A stretch of 64,000 nt of DNA from contig CM097882.1 of NCBI GenBank assembly GCA_044892505.1, positions 196,044,001-196,108,000 of the forward strand. Direction: 5' to 3'. This DNA is from Schmidtea nova (Eukaryota). Position 1 is the first letter of the stretch; every line of letters starts with the position of its first letter. Below the pieces are notes generated by a model. The model worked only from the letters and a program-made list of their open reading frames with translations, did not search any database and had not been told where the DNA came from. Made by a program: the position numbers and the translations under genes. Shown here piece after piece: positions 5,479-49,600 of this stretch.

Positions 5479-8129
5479 GAAGTAGATATACAGAGACATG
5501 GTGATCGTGGCAGACTTACGTCAGAAGAATTTGTGAATGTTTTTAAAGAAATTTCGACTCGTCCTGAGATTTTTTTTTTACTTATAAGGTATATAAATAT
5601 TTTTAAAAAATATTTTTAAAAATTACAATATGAAACATTACGTATTGTATAAAAATATTCATTTGTAATAAATGGCTAGTAAATAAACAAAATTGTTTAT
5701 GCGAAATATAGTAGGTAGATGTGTGGAGCCGGGAACAAAGACATTATGACTCATGCGTGGGCGGAAAAAAAAGAACAAAGACCCCCCCCCTCCCCCCCGG
5801 GGGGGGGGTAGAAATTTTTTTTTTGATGAGTCATCGATGAGTCATCGATGAGTCATCGATGAGTCATACTTTTTTTTTTTTTTGATGAGTCATCGATGAG
5901 TCATAATTTTTTTTTTTAAAAATTTTTTTCACGCCAAATTTTTTTTTTCAAAAATTTTTTTACGCGCCAAATTTTTTTTTTTCAAAAATTTTTTTCGCGC
6001 CAAATTTTTTTTTCAAAAATTTTTTTCGCGCCAAATTTTTTTTTTCAATAATTTTTTTTCGCGGCAAATTTTTTTTTCAAAAATTTTTTTTCGCACCAAA
6101 TTTTTTTTTTCAAAAATTTTTTTACAATTTTTTTTTTTCAAAAATTTTTTTTTTTTTTAGGCCAAAATTTTTTTATACTAATTTTTAAAGACGATTTTTT
6201 TTTTTTTTTAAGATAAATTATTTTTGGTTAAATTTTTTTTAAAAGACAAAATTCGAGTAATAAAAAATATTTACAACAGGTGTGCAAACAAAGACATTTT
6301 TATATGTGTGCATGTTTAATTAACTATTATTTGTCAAGTATGAAGCTTTTGCACTTCAAAACCATCACAGAAGAGGTTCTGCTTCCAGGGTTCTGATCGC
6401 AATGTTCTGCTTCCAGGGTTCTGATCGCAATGTTCTGCTTCCAGGGTTCTGATCGCAATGTTCTTCTTCCAGGGTTCTGATACTAAATGTTCTGCTACAT
6501 TTAATTATTATTTTTTCAAACTAAAGACATTGCAACACGTGTGCAAGTTAACAAAGACATTGCAATACACATGCAACATGAACAAAGACATTGCAACACA
6601 CGTGCAAGGACTTTGCAACACGCGTGCAACATGAACAAAGACATTGCAACACACATGCAAACTAAACAAAGACACATGTGTGCAACACATAAACAAAGAC
6701 ATTAAAAAAGACAAAATTTATTTATAAATATATCGTNNNNNNNNNNNNNNNNNNNNNNNNNNNNNNNNNNNNNNNNNNNNNNNNNNNNNNNNNNNNNNNN
6801 NNNNNNNNNNNNNNNNNNNNNNNNNNNNNNNNNNNNNNNNNNNNNNNNNNNNNNNNNNNNNNNNNNNNNNNNNNNNNNNNNNNNNNNNNTAATTACTTGT
6901 AANNNNNNNNNNNNNNNNNNNNNNNNNNNNNNNNNNNNNNNNNNNNNNNNNNNNNNNNNNNNNNNNNNNNNNNNNNNNNNNNNNNNNNNNNNNNNNNNNN
7001 NNNNNNNNNNNNNNNNNNNNNNNNNNNNNNNNNNNNNNNNNNNNNNNNNNNNNNNNNNNNNNNNNNNNNNNNNNNNNNNNNNNNNNNNNNNNNNNNNNNN
7101 NNNNNNNNNNNNNNNNNNNNNNNNNNNNNNNNNNNNNNNNNNNNNNNNNNNNNNNNNNNNNNNNNNNNNNNNNNNNNNNNNNNNNNNNNNNNNNNNNNNN
7201 NNNNNNNNNNNNNNNNNNNNNNNNNNNNNNNNNNNNNNNNNNNNNNNNNNNNNNNNNNNNNNNNNNNNNNNNNNNNNNNNNNNNNNNNNNNNNNNNNNNN
7301 NNNNNNNNNNNNNNNNNNNNNNNNNNNNNNNNNNNNNNNNNNNNNNNNNNNNNNNNNNNNNNNNNNNNNNNNNNNNNNNNNNNNNNNNNNNATAATATCA
7401 ACTTATAAAAAATAACTTATAAAAAGAACTTATAAAAAGAACTTATAAAAAAAGTAAAAATATTAACATATAAAAAAAAAATAAAAAAATAATAAAATAA
7501 TTCATTAGTTTTAATTGATTGCGCAATTTATTACAATCAAAATGTATTGGCCCTAAAGAGGACCATTATTTCGTTCACATTCTGTTTATTGGTTACTGAA
7601 TATTTTCATCATTTGTTTCTGTTTATTTTCCTCATTGGTTTTAGAATATTTTTTCATCATTTGTTTCGGATTATTTTTTCATCATTAGTTTCGGATTATT
7701 TTTTTCATCATTTTTTTTTTTTTTTTTTTTTTTCGGATTATTTTACATCATTTGTTTCGGATTATTTTTTCATTATTTGTTTCTGATTATTTTCATCAAC
7801 ATTTGTTTCTCTTTATTTTCATCAATTGTTTTGGATTATTTTCATCATTTGTTTCTGTAATCTTTTTTCTTCATCTGTAAGCTAAAATTTAGTAATATTT
7901 GTTTACAATCATAAATTGTGGCCCTGAAGAGGGCCGATTGTTCATTCACATATCTTTTTGGTTTTCTTTATATCTTTTTTTTTTTTTGAATTGTTCGGTT
8001 TAATCTTTTTTTTGATTTTTTATATTTCTTTTATATTTTTTGTCATTATCCTCATTGTCATCTTTATCCTCATCCGAAGTAGTCCCGAGCAGTCGGATCG
8101 TAGAAATCATAAGGGTCATCAGACGGACC

Positions 8130-8188
<59 letters not shown>

Positions 8189-11100
8189 CTGATCCATCAT
8201 CACCTACAAATATAGTGGTGTCACCCCCCAGATAGTGGCCATACGCCAAACTTTTATTTTTTTCCACCCAGTTCCTCTTATCGTCCCTACAAGATAAGGC
8301 TCTCTTATTGCTTTTTATACTAAAGAGCTGGTGATTTTTGCTCGTAATGCGGAACTGGGGGACATTATATATTTTATCGTTTAAAAAACAGTCAAGGTAA
8401 GACTGGTGTGTGAGACCTGCATCTTTCAAACAGATACCCTTGGCTTTCATGCAGGCCTCGTCTCCCATAAGACTATAGCACTTAGGTCTTAAGAAAACCC
8501 ACTCATCATACAGTAGACCCTTATTCTCATCCTTAAATTTGCCAATCACAGAATCAAGGGTCCTACTATACAATGCATGATGAGTGTCGTAATTAGAGGT
8601 ATCCAAAAGCCTATCGTCAATCATTGCGGTCAAAAGAGTGTTCAAGTCAAGATTTTTGATTTCCAAGAAGAAGGAATCAGTATCCCCAGCAACGATGTTA
8701 ATTTCGCAGTTGAAGTCGTTACGATATTTTTGTAACTCTTCATACTGCAGCTGGTACATACGAAGTTTGGATAAATCCAGTACGGTTTGTCCAATGTAAC
8801 TGGGTCTATCCAAACATACTGATTCCTTCTGAAGCAATACGGAGATGAGGTCATTGTCGATTTTTGTAGTTTTTTTGAAATTAGCTTTTGACGTGTAAGT
8901 CAGCAGTTTTTGTGCCGAGTTACACAGTCGTAAATTAATTCTTTTTTTTAAATTCTCTACGGTTTTGCCGTAGAGACTATTATTTAATAATTTATAAAAG
9001 TTCTTATCGAGCTTATTTGTAGATGCAGCTCGTAAGTCTGTGTTTATTTTTATATAATTATAAAAGATTTTATTTTGTGTAAATTTAATAGCGCGATGTA
9101 TGTGCGTTACCTTCACACCAATTTGAATAAATAGTTGCAGAAGCCGCCAATGAAGAACATAATTCTTCTTTGGAAGATGCGTTAGCAACAGCTTCTCAAC
9201 CTTGGATCCCGGTGCACACATCTTTTCAGCGGCAACTGGAAGATCATCCAGTTTGTCGTGAATCGATGCCGGAATTTCCAAATCCACTTCTATGGTGTAA
9301 CCATAATGAAGTGTATCGAGATTTTCCGATGTGCACTCACAAACGATGTTATTTAATAATTGGTCATCAGTGACCCACTCAAAATTACCACAAGGAAGGG
9401 GTTGGCTTAAGGCCCACCCATATAAATTATTTATGTCAATATATAGTAATGCGGTATCCGGGCTCGTCTTGACATAATGTTTATTGACAAACGTTAGTCC
9501 GCCGCGAATACCGCCCTCGAAAAAGTTATACATCTCCATATCGGTGAGGAGCTCGATAGGAGAGTCAAGAGTTAATAAAGCGGAACTCCACGACATGCCG
9601 GGAATTCCGAGAAAATTTAAAGGCTCAAGCCTGTTATGGTTAATTGATTTTAATCGAAATTGCTGAAAATAATCAGCTAACAAAAACACATCCAATTTTA
9701 GATAAACCATCATGTAATCGTACAGTGATGTACATGATGTTTCTTGCCATATTTTATGGGCAGCAGCATACTCGACAGCAGTTATATCTTTCCATTTCGG
9801 GGGTAAACACAAGGTTGATTTTAAAACTTCTAAAGAAGTGGCAGCGTCATAAGGAAAAATGCCCTTGGCAGTGACTATAGTGCCTCGAAATTCAGATTGT
9901 GTTAATGGTAAGCTAGTGAGTGTTTTTACTGCATTATTTAGAGACTCACTTACAAACTGATAAGAGTCAATAAATTTTACGGTCAGGCTATCGATGTACG
10001 CGAAAAGACTTAAAAACTTTTCACTAGTCAATGGAATACAACTAATATTCCAACTGTTATATTTGGAAAGACCATATTTTAAAATATGGTGTAAATCGTA
10101 ACCCTTCAAGTTGTGAAAGATTACGGGCAAAGAGTGTCGTATTTGCCGGGACTTGTTACATTCTGAGCAGGCTGCTCCAATATAAAGACCGGTGAAATGG
10201 TCGTGATCCCTAACAGGCGCAACTAAAAGTTTTTTGCATAAATAACAATTAGTGCTATTATCAAATTGTCGCTGTTGGGTCGCAGTGATAGTCATACGTT
10301 TTTGATAATTTTTATAATAATAGGGTGTCACTATATACCGACTGATTGACTCAATTTCTCTTAAGAATTGATCAACACCGTCTAACCCTACAAAAGATTT
10401 GTAAATTCTCACCCCAGAAAAGTTGTTAATGAGAAGGAGACCTGCGGCAATAGGAAGATGTTTTTGGTGGTGAACAGTGTCTTTCGGTAATATTGCCTCG
10501 AAATCTGCATATATTACGAAAGGAGGAGTTACTGTTTTCTTCCAATCAGTAAACTCCAAAAATTTATTTTTGGGTAAGGTGTACAGTGTAGTACCCAACT
10601 GATTTTTGTTACAAAGACCCTTATGACGATTAAAGGCTTCGTCATTCCTAAACCCATTCAAGCAACGAGGGCACCATTGACTACAAATCCTAACTGGGGT
10701 GATTGTGCTGTTTCGGCAATTCAAAAAGCGATTCAGATCGGTAATCGCAAGATAATGAAAATTATCTTTTTTCTCCAAAAGAAGCAAATTTATGGGAATA
10801 GCCCCGACTACTTTACTACGGTAGACTATATCGATAAAGGGATGTTTAAGAACGACATTATCATCATTGTCATTGTCGCTTACATCTATTTGGGCCTTTT
10901 CGTCATATGTAAGGACATTAATACTATAGCCACTGTTTTGTCTCTCAAATTTTTTGATGTTAACTAATTTCATGGGCATGTCGGTGGGGTCAAAAACAAG
11001 TTGGGAAAGATCATAAGAAGTAGTCCTATGCCTGTATTGGCGTTCAATACTATTATATTTAACTACTGCCAAGAAACTGTAAAGAAAGCAATAGGTGTCA

Positions 11101-11686
11101 TTATTTTGGACATTTACAAGGCAACTTAAATTTCTTAAAGTATTCGGCGTCTGGATATAACTGCTGCCGCTCAATCGACTAATTTCCGAAAATTTAGTGA
11201 CTAAAAAACTAATATATTCTATTTTAGAGATTGTCCAATTACTCCCCTTTTCGTTAATCTGGACAATCTTCTCATTTAAATTAGTGACACCTTCCTCAAT
11301 AAAGGTATCACTCCACTCTCTGGCAGAATTTGAGATGACGAAAGATTGTAATTGATCATCTTTCTCAAATTCTACCTTGAGACAAAATTGTATTTTAACT
11401 GATTTTAAATTAATAATATATGATTTTAATTTATCTACTAATATATCAGGTACAGAGACCGTTTTTAATAATAAGTTAGATACATCCATTTTTATAATAA
11501 AATGGGTATCGTTCAAGTCGGAAGTAACTTCAACAATACCCATTCCAATTTGATTATTATTATTATTTAAAATATTAACATAATCGTCAAATTCATCATC
11601 ATTGACGATTATGTCAGATATAATATTCATATTACTACTTTTATTATAAATAAGATCATCCTCATCATCACTGATGAGGGATATAA

Positions 11687-11753
<67 letters not shown>

Positions 11754-12097
11754 ATTAGAAATATTATTTTCATCTTCATCATCGCTGATGTCGATGATGA
11801 TCAGTTTTTTAGGAACTGAATCCGTTAATGTTGTATTTTTACGTTTATTATTTAGTTTTTGTAAAGTATTATTATTTTGTAGAATATTATTTTGTAGATT
11901 ATTATGATTAAGTGTATTATTTAGATTAAGTGTATTATTATTATTATTATTATTATTATTTGTATTTTGTAAATTATTTGTATTTTGTAAATTATTTGTA
12001 TTTTGGAAATTATTATTTATATTTGTATTATTTTGTAAAATATTTCTATTATTTGTATTTGGATTTTGTAAATTATTATTATTATTATTATTAATGG

Positions 12098-12148
<51 letters not shown>

Positions 12149-15100
12149 GGTTGTTATTAGTAATATAATTTTTATATAAAGAATTAAAAAGAGATTTTTT
12201 TGAAGGTTGGAATTGGGAAAGATGAGTCCTATGAGAAAGGTAAAATTCCTTATAAGATTTAACTTCAATAATTTTACATTTTGGGCAGAGGAGGTGGGTG
12301 ACACCATTATATTTATAGGTATAGTACTTTTCCATAATGACATGACAGTCATTATGGAAACGACTATTACAAAAATTGGTATATGTTAAACCTGAATATA
12401 TGGAAAAAATTAAAATATAATTTAAATAATAATTATAATAATTATAAAAAATAATATCATCATCAATATTCTTTTTATTATTATTAATATAAAATAATTC
12501 CTAATTAATATAAAAGTTTTCATCATTATTTCGTCATATTAGCCTTCTTTTTGGACATTAAACAAAAAAAAATATTATCATCTAAATCTGTCTTGTTTAT
12601 CTTGGTAATTTACCTTTTAACTTATTAAGTAATTGTTTTAAATATGTTACTTAATAAGTTAAAAGGTAAATTAATATAAAAATTAATATAAAAATAATAT
12701 AAAATTCAATATAAAATTCAATATAAAAATAATATAAAATTCAATATAAAATTCAATATCAAAATTCAATATCAAAATATTTTTCATTATAACGTTAATT
12801 ATTCATAAAAAATAAAATCTTCATCATTTCATATTATTATTGTTCATCATTATTTCTTCATCATTCTTTGTCATAATAATAATAATTCAGCTTCTTCATT
12901 TCGTCATAACAAATTCTGCATTTCATATAATTATTTCTTCATAATATTCTTGGTCATAATAATTCATCTTATTCATTTCATAATAACAAATTCAACATAA
13001 TATCCTTTTAACTTATTAAGTAATTGTTTTAAATATTTTACTTAATAAGTTAAAAGGTAAATTACTATAAAAATAATATAAAAATAATATAAAATTCAAT
13101 ATAAAAAAAAAAAAAAAATCAATATAAAATATTTTTTCATTATAACGTTAATTATTCATAAAAAATAAAATCTTCATTATTTCATATTATTGTTCATCAT
13201 TATTTCTTCATATTATTCTTTGTCATAATATTAATTCTTCTTCTTCTTTATTTCATCGTAACAAATTCTGCATTTCATATAATTATTTCTTATGTCACTT
13301 CATTTCATAATAACATCATAACAAATTAAACATAATAATTTCATTATTTTTAAAAGTTATTATTATTATATTAAAAGATTTAATTAAAAAATATTATTAT
13401 TATTATTATTATTATATAAATAAATAAGAATAAATTACATTTAGAGTTTTTAAAACTCTGTCCATTCAGTTTCATGGCATCATCGTTACTCGGGACATCA
13501 TTCATAATAATCGGTTCATTTAAAATCGTCTCATCGGCATCCATATCTACAGCATTCATATTTTCTAAAAAATAATTTAACAATAATGAAAATTAAAATA
13601 TTATTAATTTTACTGATAATTCTTTTCGTATTTCCAAGTCCACTTGAGGTTCCGGCCATATTGATCGATAAATTAACACCTAAAAAAAAAAAAGATTAAT
13701 ATAATTAAATAAAAAAATAATAATTTTACTGTTAAGGCCTCCCGCGATCCGCTTCGATTTATTAATATTTGATAAATTATTCATATTTAGAAAATTTCTT
13801 GAAAATTTTTGATAGATTTAAAATTTGAAAGTAAAAAGTGACGAAATAATTCAAGTATATACTATATAAAGGTGAATTTTATTAACCGACCAATCAGAAT
13901 CGAGATAGGATAGGCAAATACATGCACACATACTGCACACATAATATATCTTTGTTTATGTGTGTTTGACGTCACGATATTGCTTTGTATCGTGACAAAG
14001 ACATGACATGTGCTTATCACGCATTGATCACGCACTGGTCATGCCTTTGTGATGAAAATAATAATATTTATAATTAATAATAATAAAAATAATAATTAAT
14101 AAAAATAATAATTAATAAAAATAATAAAATAATAAAATACATTTATTGCTTTAAATAATCAACAACAGCAGACAAGCACCCTTTATAGGCACACATGCAA
14201 TGATCTTTATAGGGACATGAAATGTTTTCAGGAACATATTCAACATCTTTATAATTATATTTAATTAATCTTAATTTGGGGAAATACTTCTTCAAAACAT
14301 ACATCTTTTCATTATCGGTAACATAGAAAATAGCTCCTTTATCTGTAATATCATCCATTATACATTTTGGGCAAAAATAATCTTGTCCTTCAAACGATTC
14401 TATACGATCAGGCCATAAAGATAAATCACTGTATATATAATACTGAGGTGTGAAAATATTATTGACATTCATAATACATAATTCCTTAATTGTTGTTCCA
14501 CCCATTTCATTATATCCATAAAAATCGATAAAATAACAAGACATTTTTTCAAATAAAGTTTATTAAAATAAATTGTTTATAACATTGATTTCAACCATGC
14601 AAGGCAATGTTCACCACAAGTGATTGTTAAAGGATGCTGATACCGAATTCTATTATACACAATAGGTTTACCGATAGTTTGTAGTTTTCGAACAAGTAAA
14701 TTCGGATAATAATATCCAAAGGGATCAAATACATGTATTCGATCTGGTTTCACATAAACTGCAATCCAATGTTCACCGCCCAACGTAGATGTCTGAGTAT
14801 TTACAATGATGGCTTGATTCATTTTCAAATAAGGTATTTTATCGAGAGGAAATACTCCAATAAATTGATTTCCCAATAGTTTTTTACCTTGTTGTAATAC
14901 CTGAAAAGAACTATTTCAAAATAAATAACTAATCAATTAAAAATCTTACTCCATAATAATAATAATAAAAATAATAACTTTGATCATTTATACTGTTTAA
15001 GCTTTGCTCAAAATACAAATGTTTAAGCTCAAACCAATAATGTTTGAGCTCTGCTCAAACCAGTATTGTTCGATTGGCAGTAATTTGAACTTCATTTTCA

Positions 15101-18100
15101 AAAACTCCATAAATAACTACATGAACCGGTTCATCAATAGGTTTGGCAAACTTTATATCGAGTCGTAAATTTCCGTTTTGAGGGATTTGGCTTTGATTCA
15201 AATCAAAATCGGGAGCCAGAACAAATGTAAAGAATGGATAACTAGATTTAAATTCATCTAGACCAATACCACAATTCAAGTTTTTATCCAAATAACCTAG
15301 ATTTCGGACAAGACTTTGCATATATGATGCACTAAAATTATCATTTTCAAAATCCTGGGTATATGTTTCACGATAATCGGTATTTTTCGACAATGTTAAT
15401 GAAGTCACATTAAAATGTTTGAATGTTGATGTTGACTCGGTATAAGACCCATTATATTGATTTTCAGATTGAAAAGCCACAAGAATGAAATTAGGCATTC
15501 GTCTATCTCCAAATATTTGCTCCTTGTAAAATGACGATGCCCCTTTACCGATAGCAAACGATACGATTTCTTTAGATTTTAATGGATAAATTGCATGTTT
15601 TTTATTTAAACCAATTTGATGACCGGCCAATACTGAAGAATCACATCGAACTCTTCTTACCATTAATTTTGCATCAACTATTTGGATAACTGGTTTCCCA
15701 GCTGCAGATTTCAATGATAATGCAGAATCAGATCGCTTCAATCTAATATGTACATTAACTCCGGGAAGTAAGTATTTAGGTTGATCCATAAAATCCAGTT
15801 GTAATGACGAACACATGTTGAAAAGTTTAGATCCCTTTATCCATTTTTTCCGATCGTCGGCTGAACCATATCCCATTGGAGTAAGACACGTTTCTTTAGC
15901 ATCATTCGTATAATTTAAAATAGTTTCGATTATTGCCTTGTGTGCATATGTATTGTTTCCACCCTCGATTTTTATATTATTAAATCCGAGAATTACATCT
16001 TTGAAAAGTGTATGAAACAAATAATTATTGGGAACTACATCACTCACATCAGCTAGAGCTTTTTTATCTTTATCTACAACCTTGATTGTAACGGACAATA
16101 ATGTATCGTTCAAATCCAAATATTCGGTTTGAGAACCATTAATGTAAAATTCAACATCATTTCTACTATCTGTAATTGAATTCATTGGAAACACATCTTC
16201 AAACGCCCCATATTCAATAACTGCTTGAGGTGATGGTCGATCAAAAAGACATAATTCAGATTTACCGCAAATCATTCTTCAAATATAGTTCCATGACCTT
16301 TCATTCGTTTGTTTATACGTTTTCGTTTACGTCTTGGTCCTACCGGTACAGATTCCGGTTCCTTATTTTTTGTAAACATACTTGTAATTGTAGGAAGCAT
16401 TTGTGTTACAGCAGGTATAGCTTTATTAACTGCGGCCAAAGCATTGGTTTTCAATGACGGTAATATTTTATTATCTTTCATGAGAACGTCCTTGGCAGTA
16501 TTCATTCCGAAATTACCTAGTCGTCTAAGAATTGGAAGTGCAAATCTCCCAATAGTTTTCAACCAACCTGATCCGTACTGTTTACCGACAAAATACGGTA
16601 ATTCGCCACCAGTTTGGCTATCACTGTACATTGAAACTATATCGGGATTACTCATCGTTTTTTCGAAAATGTAGAGTTAAGTGAGTTTTTGAATCTTTTG
16701 GAAATTTTATAAATCTTCCACTGTCATCCCGGATATTTATTTCTATATTGTTTATACAAGATGTTGAAACAGGTAAATACATTGGATTTTCAACTTGTAT
16801 TTGAACAATTTCATCTGGCTCGTATTTTTCAATCCATACCGATTTTAGTAAAGGAACCAAGGAATCACCAACAATAATGGGTTCGATAATGTTTGTATAC
16901 ACGAATAATTGCTGATGAAGTTTAGATATTTTCGGTTGACGAACACCAGAAATGATATTTTTATCGGTAAATGTATCCTTATCTAATCCCAATGTATTGA
17001 CCAAGTATTTATCAAATCTGACTTTATTGATTTTTTCTTTGAGTTTGAATTTGAACAATTTATTTAATTCGACAACTGTAAAAATATCCGAACAATTATC
17101 GCTAATATATTTCTGTAATTCATCTAGATGCGTTATATACAACTCCTCCTTGAAGGTGAATACATGTCCTTCTTGACGATCATACGATATAGTAAAAGTA
17201 ATTATTTCTTCATCGTTACTGGCCAAGTTTTGCATAACTTTGAATTCACATTCTTCTTCATTACATTTTATTGTCAGTTTATTACTTCCCATTCGTTTTG
17301 CTACATCAAGATCGTTAAATGTAATTGTATAAGGAACAACATTACACGTGAGAATTATTTTTCCACTTCGTTGCCACATTTCGATATCCGGATCAATTGT
17401 GTGAGTTGGAACATTCAGATGACCACTATTATTATATATCGAGAAAAATGCATTTGCAACAATTGTTTTCGTAATATAGTAATATATTTTACAATAACTA
17501 TAAAATGGAAAAGGTTGGTAAACAAATGTAAAATCCATTAGAGCAACTTCCCAATTTCCGTTTAAATAAATTGGATTAGGTAAATTCACCATGAATTTAC
17601 TTGCGGTATTATCCGGATGGATATTCGGACAACTATTGCTCGGTAAAATAGTGTAAAAATTCACTTTACTAGATTTTTTGACGAGATCCATGATGGTTCT
17701 TTATATCCATGCCATTTAACATAGTATTGTTTATCCTTACCCACCATTTTAGTCTTCAAAATCTTTTGAATTCTAAATATCGTAGGTTTAGGAATAACTT
17801 GTAATTCTTGTTCGTAGAATTTGCCGCTGATTATATTGTTATCAGAGTCACGAATAGTATACATGACAGGATTCTGCACTGTGTTGACTTTCGATATTTG
17901 ATATACCTCATCACTCCAATTATTATCAAAATTTTTAACGAATGGCGATGTACTAATCTTGCTAATTCGAACATGATCATCAACTTTATATTTTGGTTTC
18001 TTTACTTTCACTTCACTCACAATATTTTCAGTATCAACTACTTCTGCCGGTTTCCTGCCATTTATACCCCGATGAGCACTATGATTATAACTATGAATCA

Positions 18101-21100
18101 ATTGAGGTAAGACATTAATCCAGGTTTTATTGCCTTTAAAAACAAAGTATTTTTTCAATCGATCACGCAAAGTTCGATTAAATCTCTCGACATGAGCGGC
18201 TTTGAATTGTGAGAATACCGAATAATGATTTATTCCCTTGATTACTTCCTTGACTTTACTGTTGTAAAATTCCTTTCCTAAAAAATATTAAATTTATAAA
18301 TTTAAATTAAAATTTACCCAAATCCGTTTGTAAATTAGTTGGCCGATCCTTTTTCATCATTGTCTTGATAGCAATTGCCATATCATTAGCAGATTTTGAT
18401 TTTACTCCAATTGCTCGAGCAAATCTACTGTAAACATCAATACACGTTAAAATATACTTGTACCCCTTGTTAATTTTGGAATACGGAATCATTTCCATCA
18501 AGTCCATTTGCCACAAATCATTGATTCTATATGTTTTATATGCTCGAGTTGGAAATCGTTTCAACATCGGCTTGTTTAGACTGTATGCAAGTTGCCCCGA
18601 TAACCAACTTTGTGTCTGTTGTTTCGACTTCTGTGCTTTTTTCCTTAGCTTTTCGACTCCACCGAAACCGGCGTCGTCTTTTGGGTTCGTCCAGATCTTC
18701 TCCATTGCAACAAGAAGATTTAAAGTTTAAATTTAAATTAGGTAATGATTGACCCATTGTTTATGACTTTCTTTTTCCCAATAAACCAGCACCTCCCAAT
18801 AAAGATAATGCTAATGGTAACAATGCTGCAATAAAACCACCTTGTTGTTTATATATTACTTTGCGCATAAGTTTTTTATTTTTTGAGTTTACTAGCGACA
18901 ACAATGGTTTTTTATGTTTGTTCAAAACACGGCGATTAGATGGAGTTAGATTTATTTTACCTCGCACGACTTTAATTAAAATAGAGAGTAAATCATCGAT
19001 GACGTAACTAGGAAACGATTGAAGAATACCCATTCTTCTAACGGAAGGGGCTTTAAGTAATGCATTAAAAAACGGTAAACTACGATGATGTGTTTGTTTA
19101 GCATTAGATTTCAAATTATTTTTGGGAATATTATCCATAAGTATTTTCTTGGATTTCTTTCTTGATTTCTTTATAGATTTCTTTGTAAATAGTTTCTTTG
19201 TTTTCTTTCCCGCTTTCTTTGTTCTAGCCTTTATCAATGGCTCAAACTTTACTCGAGATTTCATTAACATGATTACGATTGTAAACAGAATTAACTTTGT
19301 TTATAAACCATGGCTCCTTCAGGGTTAAAAATATCAGTTCTAACGCGTAAATCATCACTGCATTGTTGAGTAAAATCCAGGAAAATATATCCATGAGGAG
19401 ATTTTGTAGCATCTTGAAAGGCTTCAATCAAAAAGTTACGATTAGAAGGATAAGCTTGTCTTGCCAGAAAATCAATAACTGTTGCATCTCTAGGATTTTT
19501 AAAAACAACAAGATATTGAACATTTAAATTACGAGTTCGATGACTACCGCCCTGATGAAATAAATTCTGAGTTATAAAAATAACAGTAACACCTTTATGT
19601 CTACTGATTTTCGTAAATAAGTTATTGAAATCCTTTTCTTTATTTGCTTCTTGATACAAGTCGTCAATGATAATCACATCACCATGTTTTAATCTAGATG
19701 ACCAGTTTTTATCGAAACCTTTAATGATTGTCATTTTTATTTTACAAAACTGATCTTGTGTCATTCCACTTTCGTCGTCAGCTCCCCTATGCCAATAAAT
19801 ATTATTAAATTTTGACTTGAATAATTTCGATTGCAATAATTTACAAACAAATAAAGTTTTTCCACTCCCGCTCGGACCAACAATTTGAAACACTGCATCA
19901 TTTCTTAATTCCATATTTAAAACTTATATTTTGTTAATATTATTGTTTATATTTGTTTTAAATACCTGTTCTCAAAGTAATTATTTCATTTAAAAATATT
20001 TTCAGTAATGATTAGAAACATTAATTACAAAGGTAAGACAGATGTATCACACATGAAATTTCCAAATGGAAAACCCCAGCAAATTGTAGATCGAAGTGGG
20101 AAATACCCAATAATATACTTTAAATCAGGAAGATATAGAATAATGGGATGCAGAGAATTTATTAGTGACGAACAAGTTGAGTTTTACGATTTAAAGATAC
20201 AATCGATAACTGTAACTGCGGATTTAGGATTTATTTGTAATTTGAATGAATTATCGAAATTAATACCGTGTGTTTACGAGCCAGAATTATTTCCAGCTTT
20301 GAGATATATCAAATATAATCCCATGTGTGTAAATATATTTACAAGCGGGAAATTAGTCATATTAGGATTAAAAAACAAAGACTATAGTACTATAGTTGAT
20401 GATATTATTTACGATATAAAATCAATTATAGAAGATAAAGCCTTTGTTGATTTCATACTAACATGTGACTCATGACTGCAATATCGATGCATTAGAAATG
20501 CACGATTCTGATTGGCTCTGTGTGTATCGATAGAATAAAGACATGTTGTGCATGCTTCATTCTGATTGGTTCATTATGTGTGTTTCAAATCATGTGTGTT
20601 TCTTTGATATATATACTATGAACAATCTCACATAGTTTATATTCACAATTATGTCGATGACCCAAACTTTAATTAAAAGCCGTAAGGATTTTAATTTTTA
20701 ATTTTTCATATTTTATATTATTATTATTTTAGATAAATTAATGAACGTAATATATCGCAAATTGGAGGAGCTGTTCCCGAACCTGATGCCTGCTCTGGTC
20801 TACACGGCTCCTGAGATGTTCCCGTACAAGATTATGGTCTTGACGGGAATCGACATCAATCAGATTGTGCTCGATCATATGACGAGCCAGAATACGGATC
20901 TCCCAATGGTACCCGAGCACATTATGTGCGCTTATCAATGCGGGAGCTGCGTGGAAAGAATCCGGCAGTTTAATATCTGGGTTTTGAGGAATTCCCTCAA
21001 ACTCTATGATGTTCAACAAATGGACAAAATCGAGGAGGAGGAGCAGGAGGACCAAATCAAGGAAACATGGCCCAACTCAACTCCGGAGCCGACTGATGAA

Positions 21101-21245
21101 ACAACAACAACAACAACAGAATTGGAAGCACCAACTCTAGATGGTCCGTTTCCATCCGATGAATCCAATGATTGTATGGAATCGCCACAATCACCGGATT
21201 GTGCAGAATGCCATCGACAAGCTGATGGTGGTGATAATGAAGAAG

Positions 21246-21278
<33 letters not shown>

Positions 21279-24200
21279 AAGAAAACGCAGAACAATGATT
21301 TGATGTGTGTTTAATGTATTTAGTTTTTTTTTCATTTAGTTTTTAGTTTTGTAATTTTAGTTTTGTCATTTTAGCTTAATACAAGTTTATTATTCATTTT
21401 AGTTTTCATTTATTTAAATATTAATAGTTTATCTTTTATTAAATCATTTTTTTTTTTTATTTTTTTTTTTTAATAGTAGTAGTAGTAGTAGTAGTATTTT
21501 ATTAACTGTATATAAAAAAAGTAAATAGTTTTTATTAAATAATAATTAGTAAGAAATTGTTTTATGTAAGATAATTATAATTATAATAATAATAATAATT
21601 ACGAAATAAACAAATAAGTAAATACATTAGTAGCAGAACATTGCGAACAGAACCCTGGACGTAGAACTTATTCTGTGATTGTTTTTATATGAAAAAGCTT
21701 CATAATAAATAATTAAAACATGCATGCATACAACAAAGACATTGCAATACATGTGCATACTGTGTGCAAAACAAATGCATGAATACGATTGGACAAAGAC
21801 ATCCAGTCATCAGTATAAATACAAAGACATTTTATAAAATATTGTCACTATTTACAACATGCAATCACGAAAACAAAATTTGGATATAAGCGAAGAAAAA
21901 ATATATCAGACTGAGGTAAAACCAGTTCAGATGTACTATGACAGCCGACTTTATTTTTTGGTTAATGAAATACCGTATCGATTATCATATCCGGTAAAGT
22001 TAACAAAATCTTTATATGATAGTCTTGCTGTAATTATTGCCAAGGAAGATATTATCGCATTAAATCGAATATTTTCAAAGATGAATGTTAATTTGACATG
22101 TAAAGAAACAATGTACATCAATAACAGAAAAACTCGGTTTCATGATGCTTTTCAAACTATTGATTTCATGGATCAAGAACACTGGTTCGTTACAGTTATT
22201 ATTCAAGGGTACAAGATTGATAAAAAAGATGTTGTTACTCCGATTTGGAGAGTTGACAATGCAAGATACGCATAATTGTTTTTTAATAAATATTTTAGTA
22301 TGAACAAATTTAGTTTTTATATTAGTTTTTGTTTTTAAAATGAAATTAATTATAGTTATTTTATTATTATTATGTGTTGACAATACTGAAGGAGAACAAG
22401 CTTTGGAGGATTGTCAATCATCCCATCCGTTTCGAAAACAAGATAGTACTTGCGCGAGTTATAACGATATATGTCTTTACTCAAACATTGAATGCAATCA
22501 AATAAAATTACAATGTAATCAATGTCCTTCCAAAAATAATGTGATTAATAAAGATATTGAAAAAATGATTGACAAAATAATGATGAAAATAGTTGAACGA
22601 TTAAAATGTATAAATCAAACTATTGTTAAAAAAGAATATGAAGTCAGATATCAAAATCAAACAGTTGAAAACGAAAAAACATCAATTGTTTTACATTATA
22701 TAAGTTTATTTATATTAATAATTATACTGATGTTATCGGCATCCATACGGCTGGAGAAGATTTCAAATATTCCAAAGAATAATATTCCGACAAATACTAG
22801 TATTCCGATGAATAATATTACAATGAATAATATTCCGATGAATAATATTCCGAGTAACAATTCAGATGTAAATAATTTTGAAACTAAATTTTGTACACGT
22901 ACACAACGATATATTTATAAATAAATTTTGTCTTTTTTAATGTCTTTGTTTATGTGTTGCACGCATGTGTCTTTGTTTAGTTTGCATGTGTGTTGCAATG
23001 TCTTTGTTCATGTTGCACGCGTGTTGCAAAGTCCTTGCACGTGTGTTGCAATGTCTTTGTTCATGTTGCATGTGTATTGCAATGTCTTTGTTAACTTGCA
23101 CACGTGTTGCAATGTCTTTAGTTTGAAAAAATAATAATTAAATGTAGCAGAACATTTAGTATCAGAACCCTGGAAGAAGAACATTGCGATCAGAACCCTG
23201 GAAGCAGAACATTGCGATCAGAACCCTGGAAGCAGAACATTGCGATCAGAACCCTGGAAGAAGAACATTGCGATCAGAACCCTGGAAGCAGAACATTGCG
23301 ATCAGAACCCTGGAAGCAGAACATTGCGATCAGAACCCTGGAAGCAGAACCTCTTCTGTGATGGTTTTGAAGTGCAAAAGCTTCATACTTGACAAATAAT
23401 AGTTAATTAAACATGCACACATATAAAAATGTCTTTGTTTGCACACCTGTTGTAAATATTTTTTATTACTCGAATTTTGTCTTTTAAAAAAAATTTAACC
23501 AAAAATAATTTATCTTAAAAAAAAAAAAAAATCGTCTTTAAAAATTAGTATAAAAAAATTTTGGCCTAAAAAAAAAAAAAATTTTTGAAAAAAAAAAATT
23601 GTAAAAAAATTTTTGAAAAAAAAAATTTGGTGCGAAAAAAAATTTTTGAAAAAAAAATTTGCCGCGAAAAAAAATTATTGAAAAAAAAAATTTGGCGCGA
23701 AAAAAATTTTTGAAAAAAAAATTTGGCGCGAAAAAAATTTTTGAAAAAAAAAAATTTGGCGCGAAAAAAAATTTTTGAAAAAAAAAATTTGGCGTGAAAA
23801 AAATTTTTAAAAAAAAAAATTATGACTCATCGATGACTCATCGATGACTCATCAAAAAAAAAAAAAAGTATGACTCATCGATGACTCATCGATGACTCAT
23901 CGATGACTCATCGATGACTCATCAAAAAAAAAAATTTTTCTACCCCCTCCCCCCGGGGGGAGGGGGGGGTCTTTGTTCTTTTTTTTCCGCCCACGCATGA
24001 GTCATAATGTCTTTGTTCCCGGCTCCACACATCTACCTACTAAATATAATAAATCAATAAATTTCATATTAATAATTGTATGATTATAGATCACGAACAT
24101 TTTTTGGTTGTTAGGTACACGATATTTTAGCATAGCCTTTATACACAGTTGATACATTAAAATTAAAAAAATTGATCTATAGTCATACAATGCTTATTGT

Positions 24201-24361
24201 GAGAATTATTGATTTAAATAAAAAGAGATCAAAGGTGAAACCAAAATATAATTATCATAAATAATGTAAATTTGGTAAGTTTATAAGAAATTATTAATCT
24301 TTTTATAAAAAATTAAAATACGAACCGGAGGAACGATATTTAAGTACATTTGTACAAGATT

Positions 24362-24437
<76 letters not shown>

Positions 24438-27400
24438 TGGGCACACATTAAATATATTAACCCTAAAGATAGGTAATGAACAAAAAACGTTAAATATATA
24501 TACTTAGTTAACAATTTTAAGTAATTTAACTTCATTAATTCATGAATTTTTCATTATAAAATTAAAGAAATACCAACATGAAGTCGTTTTATAAAAGTAA
24601 TTGAGAAAGTTTTTAAGTATATGAGTAGCTAGAAGGGTGCTCTTTGGCTCAAGACGGAATGACTCATCGATAAGGCAACGAGTCATTATGTTGATTCATA
24701 CATCTGATAGAAGGTGAGTCAGGCTACAAGATTATGGGTCATAAATTTTGTATGACTTATGGTCTTTGTTCTATAAAGCGCAAAAATGGTCCTGTCAAAA
24801 ATATCGATGACTCATCATTTTTATAACAAAGAACTTTTCAAAAAATCTTTATCTTTTTAGTTCCCCATGAAATCTTTTAATTTTTCAGAAATCGAATTAA
24901 AAAGTTTCTTTGTATGAGTCATGTATTTAGTATGACTTATCATTTTTCGAAAATCTTTTGAAGTCCGTTTAACAAAGACCTTTTTTCAAAATTTTTCTAT
25001 GTTGAAACAAATTCATGACTCATACAAAGAAAACTTTTATTCGATTTTTGGAAGAATTCAAAAATTTCACGGTGGGGGCACTAAAAAATTTTTTTTGAAA
25101 AGTTCTTTTTTTATAAAAATGATGAGTCATCCATATTATTACCACTTTTACACTTTATAGAACAAAGATCATGAGTCATACGGTCGGCTATGACGCATCA
25201 TCTTATAGCCTGACTCACCTTCGTCGATGAGTCATTTCGTCTTTAGCCAAAGAGCACTCTTCTCACTACTTATATGAATTTTGTTGGGCCGCATTAAAAG
25301 CCGTCCTGGGCCGCGGGATGGACACGCTTGTTTTAAATGATCTTATCAGTTGTTTAATTTGTATTATTTTGCAATGTCTTTTTACGAACTCACACATTTT
25401 AAAAGTTAAGAACTAGTTTCATATTATAAATACCAACGGAATGAGATAAAGTAAAAAACGAATTTTGTTTGTCGTATAATTTTATTAAATAACAATAAAA
25501 AAATTTCATCGATATAAATAATTTTGACACTTAAATTGTTGGATTGCGGAACCTTCTGTAATGTGGATACGGAATTATTCAGTGTTTCAGCAATAGTAAT
25601 TCACTATTGAAATATCTTATGAAAAATATGTACTAAAAAATTTAACGAAAAAATTCTATCAGTGGCACACTTTTTTATAAATTGTTCCGCAGGTTGAGTG
25701 TTAATGTAAAATACAGTATGAATTAAATATTATACTATTAATTTAATTAATGTTTATATTTATTTATTATAGAATCAGGCGCATGTATCTAAACTAGCAT
25801 AGCTCAGCCAATTACACCCTCTTTTAAAATATGCAATAAAACTGTCATGTATATTTATATGGTAACATTTTCGTACTATTTTATGTCTTTAAGTCAGTTT
25901 TTATATGGTCTTAAAAATCAATTGGAAGCAAATATGAAATTGAGTGCTTTGGAAATAGATTTTATCTTATTGTAGTTTAATTAGTTAAGCCCTCTAAATT
26001 TAGTGTTTTTTATTTTATATATTTATAAGTAACATGCAGCGGCGTATTTACCTGTATGCAGATTAGGCATTTGCCTAGGGCCTCGGATTTATAAGGGCCT
26101 CCAAAATACAAAAAAAAATTATAATTTTTTTTTTAAAAAAAAACAATAGTCGTAGCATTTTACATTTTAAACTTTAACAGTTTTAAAATTTTCAGAGTTT
26201 AAAACCTTTTGGGGCCTCAATTTCAATTTACAAAATAAAATTAGTAGGCCTTTACAAAATAAAATATATGATATACAAAATATTGCTTGGATGTTGCTTT
26301 TTTCCTTTTTGAATATGTTCAAATTCTTTTACTTATAAGAATTTATAAGAAAAAATAACAAATAGGATAAAAGCAACATCCAAGCAAGGTTTGAATTTTT
26401 ATATTTTGAATATAATATATTTTATTTTGTAAAGGCCTACTAATTTTATTTTATAAATTGAATTTGAGGCCCCAAAAGGTTTTAAACTCTGAAAATTTTT
26501 AAACTGTTAAAGCTTAAAATGTAAACTCTGAAAAATTAAAAAGAAAAATAATAAAATTATTTTTAAAAAAAAAACAATAGTCGTATCATTTCATATGCAA
26601 TTTCATTTCATTTATTGTTTGAATTTTGTTACGTTAACATCAAATTTTCGTTGCATGATTTTGAATATTGCAAATAAATATTTGTACGTATTGATTATTA
26701 GCATAATTTTGATTTTAGATTGATATTTTCCGAATAACCAACAGTTTTTTTTAAAACTACCAAAACCAATCGTTGTTGCTTCTTGCTTTCGTCATTTAAT
26801 ATTTCATAATTCACTCGACAATTATTCCATTTTATTTTTTTAAAAAAATATTGACAATTATACGTTAAAATGAAAAGAACTTTCGAGTCTGGCGCACAAA
26901 AACGATTGCGAAAAAAAATTCAATTGAAGGAAAACGAAAAGCAAAGAAACTCCCTTGCTAAATTTATGTCTTTGGATAAAAATGTTCCATCTACCAGTAC
27001 TGCGGCTGCAGATAAAACTGTTTCACTACCAGTAATAGCTGATAGCGATGTTAATCTTTCGATAAACAGTCTTTGTGCAGAAGTAGGTGCAAGTGATAAT
27101 TGCGTTGCCACTACCAATGACATTGAGGTTGAAATTGAGAGTGAAGTAGTAAGTACAAATACTTATCCTATCTTTACTGACATTGGTTTATGGCCAAAAA
27201 TAATTACTAATGATGTGATTAAACATTGTATCTGTATAAAACCCAAAAATGTGGGAGATTTAGAGTCTTCTAAAAAATGTTATAAAGATAACAATGATCA
27301 ACAAATATACCGAAAATTAAATGATGTACATTTTTATACGACTAAAATAAACGGAGTCCAAGAGCTAAGAGAATGGTTGATTTATTCTGAAACAACGAAA

Positions 27401-30400: not shown

Positions 30401-31548
30401 AATACTTTTATAGAAATTTATAATAAATTTAACTAGCCCTTAGACTGGCAATTCTAAAGCAATTGAGTGTTTTTTCGTGTGTATATCTTATTTAAGCTTA
30501 TTAAAGTTTAGTCATGTATAATTTTATTTTAAATGAAGAGGGGTGTAGAACTCTATCCAATATGGGTTACTGGTTGGTATCATATGTCCGAATGTTATTC
30601 TAGTCAAGATATAAAGAAACAATTAGGGCACAGAAAATGTTTAAAAATATTGTACACAATATTTTTTTTCATCTTAAATTTATATTTTTTTATGTATGTT
30701 ACGTTGATAAACAACTGTTTCCCTGCAAAACTCAGTAAAGTCCTTCAATCTAAGGACTAAACATCGGGCGATTAATCATAAATCATTGGAACTGCAGATT
30801 ATGAGTTTTATAATTGTTTTTTACCACTTGTATCTATATTACCTTCAATGGGACAGATTTATCCCATTGGTTGTCTGAGGATTAAGAAATGCGAAATAAA
30901 TTTTCATAAATAATGTTATGTATTTAATTTATAATATTCAGTTCTCATTTTGTTAATCAGATAATATAGCAAAGTTTTAAATATAATTTTTTATGGTTTT
31001 TTAATCTAATTTAAAAATATTAGGTCTTATTTTAAAATATTATTAATATTATTTTTTATGTTAATTCTTTTTATATTTACTACAATAGATTATTTTAAAT
31101 TAAATTAAAATTATTGCCAATATTGCATAATTCTAAAAATATTTTTACGAATTTTCGGCAGTCATTTTCAAGTGTGTATTTTTTAATACAGAAAAGGCTG
31201 TGCGAAAAATTTGTGTTACTTTATAAAGAAATATTTATCTTTTTTAAAAGTAATGAGAATTTCTGAAATAGATACGAAAAGATAAATGGTGAAAATAAAG
31301 ATGTTAATTATTAGAAATATTGTCTAATATTAAAGCACAAGTTATTAAAACTATTCAAATTTATTATTTTGTCTTTAGTTTGTTTTTAAGTAATATATTC
31401 ATTGTATTTTAATTACATTATTAAAAATTTAATTAATTTTAGATGACTGGAATTACAAAAGAATTTTGTATAGAACTTATTCAAACTTACGAACCATCCA
31501 GTGAAGGCAAACAGAAAGGACAATTAGGAATCGATGGTAAATACTACT

Positions 31549-46600: not shown

Positions 46601-49600
46601 TATTCTTGATGTCTGATATTAAGATAGTTACTTAAATAAAAGATTTTAATTAACCTACATTAATTAAAATTATTTAATATATAAATTAATTTTAAATAGT
46701 AGGGGAAGCGAGCGGTCTGGTAAAAGCCATTTATCCATAATCTGTATAATTTACATAACAATTATACAGTAACCCCATAAAAAATATTCAAATGGGCTAT
46801 TTTTTCATTTCGTATTAATATTATATTACATAACACTATAACCACATAATCAATCTTCCAATCGATTACATATTTTTTTATTAAAACTTTTAATAAAGAA
46901 CCTCAAATTACATATAAAAGCATAATGAATAATATAAATACAATTCACAAGATTAAATTTTCAAATAAATTTTTATTTAAAAAATTTGCTCTATCTTTGT
47001 ATTCTTCGGCATCTGAATTACGTACCCCATAACCACGTCAATACCCCTATAATTAATATAAGCTAGGCTTTCGTTTTCCCCGACTCATAGTCTTTTATCG
47101 TCCTCATTAGGTAAAGCTATTTTTATATTTTTTTATTTAAACAATTGGTGGTTTTTACTTACTATTCTCGAGTGTTCAACAGAAATTGAATTATTAAGGT
47201 AACAATCCAGTTACGACTGATGTTTGTGGTCACTCACTACCCTTCAATGTTTTACCTTTTCTTTTATGCTCTCTTTTTTTCCTTTATAAACAATAAAACT
47301 TTGGCCTTAAAACACACTCTCTTTGTATTTAAGTATTGTATTCTGGTCTTTGATCTTGCCAATGACAGAATCAATGTTTCTGGAACACAATGGATGATGT
47401 AATTCATAATTCGACGTATCTAACAGACTACCCCTAAACATGACACTTAAAAAAACCTCCAATTTACTATTTTTCATTTCTAAAAAAAGAGTCCATATCA
47501 CCAGCAACTATATTAATCTTATAGTTGAAATAGTTACTATATTTTTGTAACACTATATAATGGAGTTGATACATCCAGTACGGTTTGATCAATAAAACTG
47601 GATTTATCTAAAAAGACAAAATCTTTAGTCACAAAAATAGATTTAACAATTAAATAGATAAAAAAAGAGTCCATATCACCAGCAACTATATTAATCTTAT
47701 AATTGAAATAGTTACTATATTTTTGTAACACTTCATAATGGAGTTGATACATCCAGTACGGTTTGATCAATAAAACTGGATTTATCTAAAAAGACAAAAT
47801 CTTTAGTCAATAAAATAGATTTTAACTCATCTTTGATTCTATAAATCTTACGGAAAGTTGATTTAGAGATATATGTAATCAGCTTTGTTGTCGAATTACA
47901 TATTCGAAAATTTAATCTCTTTTTCAGATTCTCTACCGTTTCCGTTGAGACTATTATTTTAAACCATATATGTAATTCTTATTCAAAGCCTTATTCTAAG
48001 CCGCCCTAAGCTGTGTATTGATATCAATATACTTTTTGAAAATAAATTTCTCCTAATTTTGTATTTCCTGATGAACCAAAGAAAGAAAAATCTTGAGAAA
48101 TCTCTAATGAAGAACATAATTCAATTTAGGATTATTTGTAAGCATCAGCTTCTCAACTTTTGAACCTTGAGTACACATTTTGCGGTTGCAACAGGGAAAT
48201 CGTTTAGTTTATCGTGAATTTCAGAAGGGATTTCAAGATCCACTTCAAAAGTAACTCCATATGTTAAAATAGCCAAAGACATCCATTAAATTTATTTAAT
48301 TTAGTCTGATCAGTCATCCATTCAAATTTCCCATAAGGTAATTTTTGGTATGAGGCCCAACCGTATAAATTAATTATATCAATGTATCAGTCGTTTTGGT
48401 GGATACTACATGATGCTTGTTGACAAATATAAAACCACCACGGATCTTCCTTTCGAAAAAATTATAAATCTCCCTATCCAAGAGCAACTCTTTATAATAT
48501 AGTATTAAAATTTGAAACATTCCCTTGAATATTTTTAAAATAAAGCAGAATAGTTTATTGATTGTGAAAAATCGGTTTTAAAATTATTTGTTGAACCTAA
48601 ACAAAAAACAGTTATTTTTCTCTTCACTATTTTGATAATTAGTTGAAGATAATAATAATTTTTATGAAATGCTGTATTTCAATATTGCATAATCTGGATT
48701 TGTTATAATTATTTATTAATCAATAAGAAACAATGTAATTCAATTTCAATTCGCAATATTCTTTGAAGTAATAAATCTGTTTGAACTAATTGAGTCGAAT
48801 TTTTAATAGGTGAATTTTTATCAACAAAAAGGATTTTTTAATTCAATTCAAAATTTTTTTTAAAAATTAATAATTAATTTACAAATAATTATTGTTCTAA
48901 ATGATTTTTATATACTAATTGGGCTCAAGAGGTCGAACTTAATACATTTTTATTTTAAATCAAAGTTATTTTTTGAAACAATAATAAAAAAATTTATTTT
49001 TAAAAAATTTATTCATTATTTTAATTAATCAAAATCAGTAATAATATTACTTTAGATTACTAATAATTTGTTCGAAAATTAAATAAATTTGCCAATTACT
49101 CCTCTATTTTCAAAACAGAAAATTTCTGTAAAATAATAAATTCTTGAACGACGTAATATAATGTAGAAAATAATAATTTTTGAAATTATTTCATGTAATA
49201 CTAAACACAGAGGAAACAAATTAAATTACGTAATCGATTTACCATAACCAATCAAAATAAAGTTACTCCCCAATCCTTTTTCGCACACTCCGACCATATA
49301 TATTTTTATGGTGCAATCGATGGCGTCATAATATAAATTTTTATTATGTATTCGAAGACGTAATCTCTGGTTTATTATTAAATTTTTAGTTAATGGTCAA
49401 AGATCACGGTCAAACTTTTTAGATTAAATTATTAAAAAATTTTAAAAGGTCTAAACTGATATTATCTACATTTATTAAAATACAACTATGCTAATCTAGC
49501 GCCATCTACACTAATCTAGCGCCATTTATTCTCCATATTGGTGTCATAACTTCTTTGCGATTGATTTTATATTCTATTGATTGAAATTCGACATGAAAAC

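Follow-up and report, generated by a model that had tools for sequence, protein, structure and literature searches.

Two Polinton-type ends joined head to head in a 647-bp gene-less element from Schmidtea nova

A 64,000-nt stretch of the Schmidtea nova genome (GenBank assembly GCA_044892505.1, contig CM097882.1, positions 196,044,001 to 196,108,000, forward strand), hereafter the window, was analyzed, and all coordinates below are window positions. At 24624-25270 the window contains a 647-bp element, designated here as the mini-element. It starts with AGTAG, ends with CTACT, and is flanked on each side by TATATG, a perfect 6-bp target site duplication (TSD). It lies 582 bp from the right end (24041) of a full-length Polinton. 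Two Polinton-type ends are placed head to head around a 90-bp spacer inside the TSD, and no gene is present. The features are as follows (TIR, terminal inverted repeat).

24618..24623, no strand, left TSD TATATG
24624..24923, plus strand, left arm, TIR-like, 300 bp
24624..24668, plus strand, left terminal module, with 13 of its first 16 nt shared with the full Polinton end; candidate origin and integrase site
24671..24708, plus strand, 38-bp segment present in the left arm only
24924..25013, no strand, non-palindromic 90-bp spacer, the loop of the hairpin
25014..25270, minus strand, 257-bp right arm with 88% identity to the left arm
25271..25276, no strand, right TSD TATATG

The span, ends, flanks, and distance to the full element had all been given exactly in an earlier sequence-only reading. 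Among the TSD lengths of 2-11 bp tested at the boundaries, 6 bp is the only fit, and the chance of a 6/6 flank match is ~0.001 at the local base composition. The two arms (element positions 1-300 and 391-647) align with 217 matches, 29 mismatches, and 9 internal gaps, one of which is 38 bp long, and they occupy 86% of the element. Folded as single-stranded DNA, the mini-element shows a minimum free energy of -186.4 kcal/mol, while 20 shuffles gave -57.8 +/- 4.1 (z -31). The sequence-only reading described a full-length imperfect palindrome; this is correct for the two arms, which fold back on each other, but not for the 90-bp centre, whose self-complementarity is not above chance (234 of 300 shuffles score equally well). 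The spacer contains one TGACTTA and one AACAAAGAC motif, and its weak similarity to arm positions 184-234 is not significant (19/300 shuffles equally good).

The longest stop-to-stop frame in the mini-element is 74 aa, and no homology to Polinton proteins was found in it (best tblastn E 0.75; no tblastx match at E<=0.05), in agreement with the earlier claim that it has no open reading frame (ORF). These results rule out a coding vestige. Since there is neither an ORF longer than 74 aa nor protein homology, the mini-element is not an autonomous Polinton. It shares with autonomous Polintons the 6-bp TSD, the AG...CT ends, and the long TIRs (300/257 bp), and lacks their genes (pPolB, integrase, and morphogenesis genes) and their length of 13-25 kb. 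Being short and non-coding, with TIRs and a TSD, it has the structure of a MITE (miniature inverted-repeat transposable element). A structured RNA was also rejected: the 8 weak Rfam matches in 24000-26700 are all outside the mini-element and below gathering scores, and G.T pairs show no strand bias (8 vs 9). A bacterial promoter scan gave background level, and such a scan is not relevant to an animal host.

The ends connect the mini-element to Polintons. The window has 159 AGT...ACT pairs whose 6-bp flanks match perfectly. Ranked by end identity, the full Polinton is first (20/20) and the mini-element second (17/20); the third-ranked pair has the flank AAAAAA. Only 4 of 124,402 16-mers show at least 13 matches to the first 16 nt of the Polinton, and these are its own two ends, the left end of the mini-element, and a site at 53295. 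At the right end of the mini-element, 12 of the 16 positions match. In a scan with the 46-nt end (119,294 45-mers, TIRs masked), the top distinct sites were 53295 (47) and the two mini-element ends (41, 38), while the best unrelated site scored 32 (mean 3.3, standard deviation 6.1). Eleven of the 16 terminal positions are invariant over the four ends compared. AAGAC and ATGACTCAT are in register between the mini-element ends and the first 46 bp of the full Polinton, with AAGAC at position 28 and TGACTCA at position 37 in the mini-element, and at 29 and 38 in the full Polinton TIR. Position 43 is the site of ATCGA in each arm, and likewise in a fold-back relic of another Polinton described below. 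The right end AGTAGT is identical to the (AGT)2 end motif of Mavericks, the left end is AGTAGC (5/6), and the neighbour has AGTAGG. The match to the authentic Polinton end begins at exactly the outermost bases of the mini-element. Mavericks have 6-bp TSDs, (AGT)2 ends, and TIRs of 46-1447 bp, and AGTAGT, the commonest end motif of vertebrate Mavericks, was linked by the authors to jumping-back initiation (PMC8097293). From the end comparison, the mini-element very probably derives from a Polinton, and the proposal that it is reduced to fused TIRs agrees with its two joined, gene-less Polinton-type ends. The sequence-only reading had taken the 6-bp TSD with AG...CT ends as the Polinton signature. 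The homology of the ends upholds this, but the TSD length alone does not, as IS3EU/GingerRoot elements also have 6-bp TSDs (PMC10045372). The Polinton assignment thus rests on the ends.

Two short motifs are repeated in the mini-element. Exact copies of TGA(C/G)TCA, which we take to be an AP-1-like motif, are located at 24660, 24715, 24808, and 24915 in the left arm and at 25016, 25123, 25172, 25211, and 25228 in the right arm, consistent with the at least 8 copies noticed earlier. These 9 copies are compared with a mean of 0.14 and a maximum of 2 in 1000 dinucleotide shuffles. The CTTTGTT motifs also noticed earlier are represented by 4 copies of CTTTGTT/AACAAAG (1 + 3), presumably HMG-box-like, against a mean of 0.23 and a maximum of 2; none of the 1000 shuffles reached 4. 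The palindrome doubles these counts, and the independent copies are about half of 9 and 4. In the window, 25 of the 33 TGA(C/G)TCA copies are within the mini-element (9) or the TIRs of the neighbouring Polinton (16), and 5 are found in 40,027 unrelated bases. The 11-mers of the mini-element cover 7.3% of the full Polinton TIR, against a median of 0.3% per kb. The adenovirus packaging motif TTTG-N8-CG (PMC12090768) was dismissed as a chance occurrence: it is found once per arm at position 20, in neither full TIR, and 23 times in the window.

The neighbouring Polinton served as the reference for these end motifs, and contains the following features.

5710..24041, no strand, full-length, young Polinton with TSD AAATAT
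8070-12335, minus strand, pPolB, 1421-aa ORF
14577-14822, minus strand, adenovirus-type protease (Pfam)
15055-16275, minus strand, major capsid protein, 406-aa ORF, assigned to double-jelly-roll capsid clusters at 0.98
from 18705, minus strand, interrupted integrase (rve; Pfam)
19291-19914, minus strand, A32-type ATPase (Pfam)
20008-20475, plus strand, TATA-binding protein (TBP)-like (PF00352, E 1e-13)

Its TIRs are at least 1027 bp long and 99.7% identical (1023 matches, 3 mismatches); the left TIR is partly in the assembly gap 6737-7391. The protease, rve integrase, A32-type ATPase, and TBP-like protein were identified with a Pfam scan of 26 proteins. For the 1421-aa ORF, Pfam gave only an endonuclease VII domain and no polymerase call. 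We take this ORF to be pPolB on the basis of its family-B motifs and of a 31% match in a related Polinton contig, L001. The endonuclease-VII/HNH-like domain is inserted at residues 681-729, and long Asn and Gln microsatellite tracts are also present. Similar pPolB endonuclease insertions are described from some nematode and oomycete Polintons (10.1101/2023.08.22.554363). The integrase frame is broken after ~130 codons (~17650-18705) despite the 99.7% identical TIRs, through either a lesion or an assembly error. The capsid alignment gave no sequence match with a solved structure. The TBP-like protein has a homologue in L001 at 10252-10650 (38%), and a Polinton-borne TATA-binding-protein fold may merit attention. 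For the subterminal ORF 21859-22275, the protein search found no relatives and the Atlas leads were all below 0.9. Just upstream of this ORF, 21631-21744 is a diverged internal copy of the TIR module 23315-23438, as if the TIR repeats doubled as its promoter. The TIRs (5710-6736 and 22906-24041) are built of tandem modules: an 11-bp ATGACTCATCG, a 32-bp T/A-tract, a 28-bp module, and a 31/53-bp AACAAAGACATT. The module copy numbers differ between left and right, and substitutions are almost absent.

Direct descent of the mini-element from this neighbour was rejected, because the interiors are not collinear and the arms are 11.8% diverged vs 0.3% between the neighbour TIRs. BLASTN gave only matches of at most 40 bp with E>=0.03, and the best local score against the whole neighbour is 68, where the shuffle maximum is 66 (n=15). 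An alignment with cheap gaps reached a score of 129 (0/100 shuffles; controls 30/100 and 2/100; relic 2/100), which is explained by chained motifs. The earlier statement that the mini-element is not a copy of the neighbouring TIR is therefore right for the interior, while both elements share their terminal ~45 bp and their stock of motifs. The 95% interval of the arm divergence is 8.0-16.5%, and the probability of an intact TSD at 11.8% divergence is 0.47. The arms differ by 17 transitions and 12 transversions, with an even identity of 84-93% per 50 bp, and the decay looks neutral. The comparison supports both parts of the earlier proposal of a different or older subfamily. If the arms were identical at insertion, the mini-element would have been inserted before the neighbouring Polinton.

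The site 53295 is the right terminus of a second fold-back structure, and supplies a third Polinton-type end for comparison.

49215..53295, no strand, gene-bearing fold-back relic of a Polinton; right terminus, at 53295, of Polinton type; left terminus missing
~50844-51048, small TIR element splitting the right arm of the relic
~51208-52640, mariner-like insertion splitting the right arm of the relic

The inverted arms of the relic are at ~49215-50149 and 50744-53271, with block identities of 77, 88, 85, and 82%; the best block is 11.8% diverged. Both arms contain a decayed homologue of ORF 21859-22275 of the full Polinton (43%, E 1e-23; 35%, E 4e-16). The centre contains a homologue of ORF 20741-21298 (34%, E 5e-5) and possibly a weak pPolB tail (tblastx E 0.028; 16 and 18 of 300 DNA shuffles equally good). 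Just left of the relic, at 47028-48490, is a decayed C-terminal third of pPolB with ~63% DNA identity to that of the neighbour; a 178-bp tandem duplication is observed inside it. No convincing TSD was found for the relic (one 5/6 candidate, 49188-49193). With the left terminus missing and no convincing TSD, the relic may or may not have been inserted as one unit. With the relic, at least two separate origins of end-duplicated Polinton derivatives, similarly diverged, are evident in the window, and the relic and the mini-element together suggest that end-fusions of Polintons recur.

Besides its own two arms, no further copy of the mini-element was found in the 64-kb window. The exact end pattern of 23 specified bases had 0 matches in prokaryotic genome contigs, where none was expected, and blastn against phages and plasmids gave no match; both results concern prokaryotic collections and carry little weight. 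A relative of the capsid protein is encoded in 3 of 76 candidate stretches, and none of these capsid-encoding stretches has usable termini or likeness to the mini-element. The Polinton-gene contigs L001 (JANOGQ010000345.1), L002, and L003 are inside bacterial metagenome-assembled genomes, where this DNA, eukaryotic or viral, was probably mis-binned. In L003, GC-rich sequence that looks bacterial appears to be joined to a piece of a Polinton.

We consider the mini-element to be an old, inert copy of a once-mobile, non-autonomous mini-Polinton, with a probability of roughly 0.55 for the whole statement, including past mobility. The status of "MITE-like parasite" given in the sequence-only reading is unproven. 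Under this interpretation, a Polinton of another subfamily would have lost its interior by a join or a polymerase template switch within its repeat-rich TIR. The near-palindromic ATGA(C/G)TCAT, copies of which are natural inverted repeats of one another, may have been the pairing point; the arm pairing ends 1-6 bp past an ATGA(C/G)TCAT motif pair. Microhomology-mediated miniaturisation is known for mariner MITEs (PMC3814204). With both ends kept, the mini-element could have been copied in trans by the protein-primed PolB of a helper. Its AGT-repeat ends would suit a jumping-back start, and its single strand would form an almost loop-less panhandle. In 2006, Kapitonov and Jurka reportedly proposed a racket-shaped single-strand Polinton intermediate. 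The integrase of the helper would then insert the mini-element and make the TSD. Of the signals kept, the terminal 16 nt may represent the core origin and integrase site, and TGA(C/G)TCA and AACAAAG are putative host-factor sites that may boost replication or transcription. The analogy is with adenovirus, in whose inverted terminal repeats (ITRs) NF-I and NF-III act. After insertion, the mini-element would have decayed neutrally, and the neighbouring Polinton would have come later. A sampling argument also suggests that a random TIR-only copy is likelier to come from an amplified family than to be a one-off.

Several observations weigh against this interpretation. Only a single copy of the mini-element is found in 64 kb. 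The interrupted integrase frame makes the neighbour no obvious helper, and no parent with collinear TIRs is in the window, both the neighbour and the relic being non-collinear with the interior of the mini-element. The coincidence of the junction with a motif is weak (~5-10% by chance, by hand estimate). Motif positions are only marginally better kept between the arms (1/35 mismatched vs 28/211, p 0.09), in a comparison whose motif definition favours the motif. The related contig L001 showed no recognisable ends with which the motif layout could be compared. The ends are no better conserved than the interior between the arms (13/16; 42/47) and give no sign of selection; with the neutral substitution pattern, this marks the present copy as a fossil. 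All sequence features, including the TSD and the ends, are explained equally well if a full Polinton was inserted, made the TSD, and then lost its interior in place, through abortive gap repair or deletion across paired TIRs. The 647 bp would then be a one-off scar that never moved, the inverted-repeat counterpart of a solo long terminal repeat (LTR). This collapse is a tentative alternative, less probable than a mobile family. The single copy in the window agrees with it, 96% of the Maverick loci in vertebrates are degraded (PMC8097293), TIR-only Polinton remnants are reported at C. elegans eri-6/7 (10.1101/2024.01.15.575659), and the relic, having no left terminus or clear TSD, resembles a local rearrangement more than a tidy insertion. 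Collapse requires a clean loss of ~15 kb that leaves two near-equal arms, and a random window should, by inference only, contain one-off scars less often than members of an amplified family. As collapse predicts the identical sequence, only copy number separates it from a mini-family.

Both arms could instead originate from one Polinton end, if the polymerase folded back on a motif pair and produced a snap-back (copy-back) defective genome. This would be another form of the birth step, compatible either with later spread or with collapse, and it appears rather unlikely. The homologue of ORF 21859-22275 in both arms of the relic is in its favour, this gene being outside the TIR in the full Polinton as far as gap sizes allow, and the spacer resembles, although not significantly, a continuation of one arm. 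Adeno-associated virus (AAV) makes snap-back genomes (PMC8235507). On the other hand, a junction inside the TIR gives the same product as a deletion, and the left TIR of the full Polinton is partly in the gap 6737-7391. In butterflies, some Polinton TIRs reach ~2 kb and include genes (10.1101/2025.02.07.637071); the duplicated gene of the relic may thus have been in the TIR of its parent, and is no proof of snap-back. Derivation from another superfamily mimicking a Polinton end (a Tc1/mariner MITE with a TA TSD, an element with a 4-bp TSD, IS3EU/GingerRoot, or a solo LTR) is very improbable. Shifted boundaries do yield a TA (24622-25272) or an ATAT (24623-25271) TSD, but in both a mismatch occurs at TIR base 1 or 2 (TG/TA in the TA option) and 9/12 bases match, against 10/12 with the first five TIR bases perfect for the 6-bp TSD. 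A second TA option, 24628-25266, cuts inside the Polinton-type end, and no TA TSD with the matching TIR ends of Tc1/mariner MITEs is obtained. IS3EU/GingerRoot shares the 6-bp TSD, but its termini are TA..TA, rarely TG..CA (PMC10045372), and shifting the boundaries by up to 8 bp never yields these ends together with a 6-bp TSD. Solo LTRs have TG..CA ends, 4-6 bp TSDs, and short TIRs with no long palindromes, in contrast to the AG..CT ends and 260-300-bp arms seen here. All of these are opposed by the match of the mini-element ends to an authentic Polinton end to the base. Long palindromes are a known class of assembly or amplification fold-back artefact, and the assembly is gapped (6 N runs). 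An artefact would yield near-identical arms, and the 29 substitutions and 9 indels between the arms, the perfect TSD, and the Polinton-type character of both ends leave this explanation with hardly any likelihood.

An N in a Repbase name denotes a non-autonomous family. Non-autonomous Polintons have already been named: Polinton-1N1_DR (PMC9341505), Polinton-N1A_NV, which still has the capsid gene (PMC11296320), and, in one view, Tlr1 (PMC5499653). They share the helper dependence proposed for the mini-element, whereas Tlr1 has many genes. A family no larger than the mini-element may exist in Repbase or Dfam. Polintons/Mavericks with AGT-type ends resemble the mini-element in the 6-bp TSD, (AGT)2-type ends, and TIRs of hundreds of bp (PMC8097293; PMC8969392). 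Intact vertebrate Mavericks are 12.7-24.6 kb long, whereas the mini-element is 647 bp and has no pPolB, integrase, capsid, protease, or ATPase. The MITEs Gnome, Elf, and Goblin, derived from the mariner Ozma, are also short and gene-less, with ends kept and junction microhomology (PMC3814204); the mini-element differs in that its arms make up 86% of its length, its parent would be self-synthesising and virus-like, and it is known from one copy. The C. elegans Polinton_CE_TIR remnants are likewise TIR-only Polinton sequence, but they are described as rearrangement products, including direct repeats, and not as a head-to-head unit with its own TSD (10.1101/2024.01.15.575659). By analogy only, the adenovirus ITR places host-factor sites behind a terminal core, in the first ~40-90 bp (PMC6410123), and AAV forms fold-back defective genomes (PMC8235507). 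The mini-element differs from both in its AP-1-like and HMG-like motifs and in its integration with a TSD. In the literature searched, which consisted of the available portions of open papers outside Repbase and Dfam, including 10.1101/2023.08.22.554363, PMC6431247, PMC8969392, and PMC8504770, no Polinton unit below 1 kb with a head-to-head layout and a TSD of its own was described, nor any non-autonomous, TIR-only Polinton this small; this does not establish their absence from print. The same portions gave no mention of TGACTCA motifs in the TIRs of Polintons, and supplementary TIR tables may bear on this motif claim.

Polinton replication and integration have been inferred mostly from gene content and from the adenovirus analogy, and the required DNA signals are undefined. 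Comparison of an ends-only 0.65-kb unit with two other subfamilies in 64 kb reduces the candidate cis-signals to one module of ~45 bp plus two short motifs. This end module (terminal core, CAAAG/AAGAC, and ATGA(C/G)TCAT-CGAT) is common to three lineages in the window. If the mini-element belongs to a multi-copy family, Polinton enzymes work in trans, even with a substrate ~28x shorter than the helper. Such a substrate is far below a capsid-sized genome, which would favour an intracellular transposon cycle for these copies, and some unclassified palindromic repeats with 6-bp TSDs in annotations would be Polinton satellites. As a single scar, it would be a routine product of decay and of use chiefly for dating. 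A more speculative and doubtful proposal, drawn by analogy, is that Polintons shed snap-back genomes through their AP-1-like repeats, that these are integrated and spread as minimal satellites, and that the ~45-bp end module is an origin working with a host bZIP factor. The bZIP factor would then have a role like that of NF-I and Oct-1 in adenovirus, and replication would be tied to the host stress/AP-1 state. Integrated fold-backs would be fossils of extrachromosomal Polinton replication, and, as hairpin templates, could give rise to silencing RNA.

No host gene was seen in the 64-kb window, which is a dense nest of elements (155-1907, 26870-28922, 42199-46484, 51208-52640, and 54685-56837) including two hAT relics, a Gypsy retrotransposon, a mariner-like element, and a second probable LTR element. 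Named relatives of the hAT sequences, at ~42-57%, are from arthropods, vertebrates, and Hydra. Upstream of the hAT transposase at 26870-28922, an AT-rich fold-back at 26159-26525 has 125-nt arms, 95% complementary, and a 117-nt loop, and is unrelated to Polinton ends. Unclassified inverted repeats of 118-175 nt are located at 30238-30412 and 36666-37152. An unclassified 225-bp dispersed repeat is present in two copies, 98% identical, at 53820-54044 and 59342-59566.

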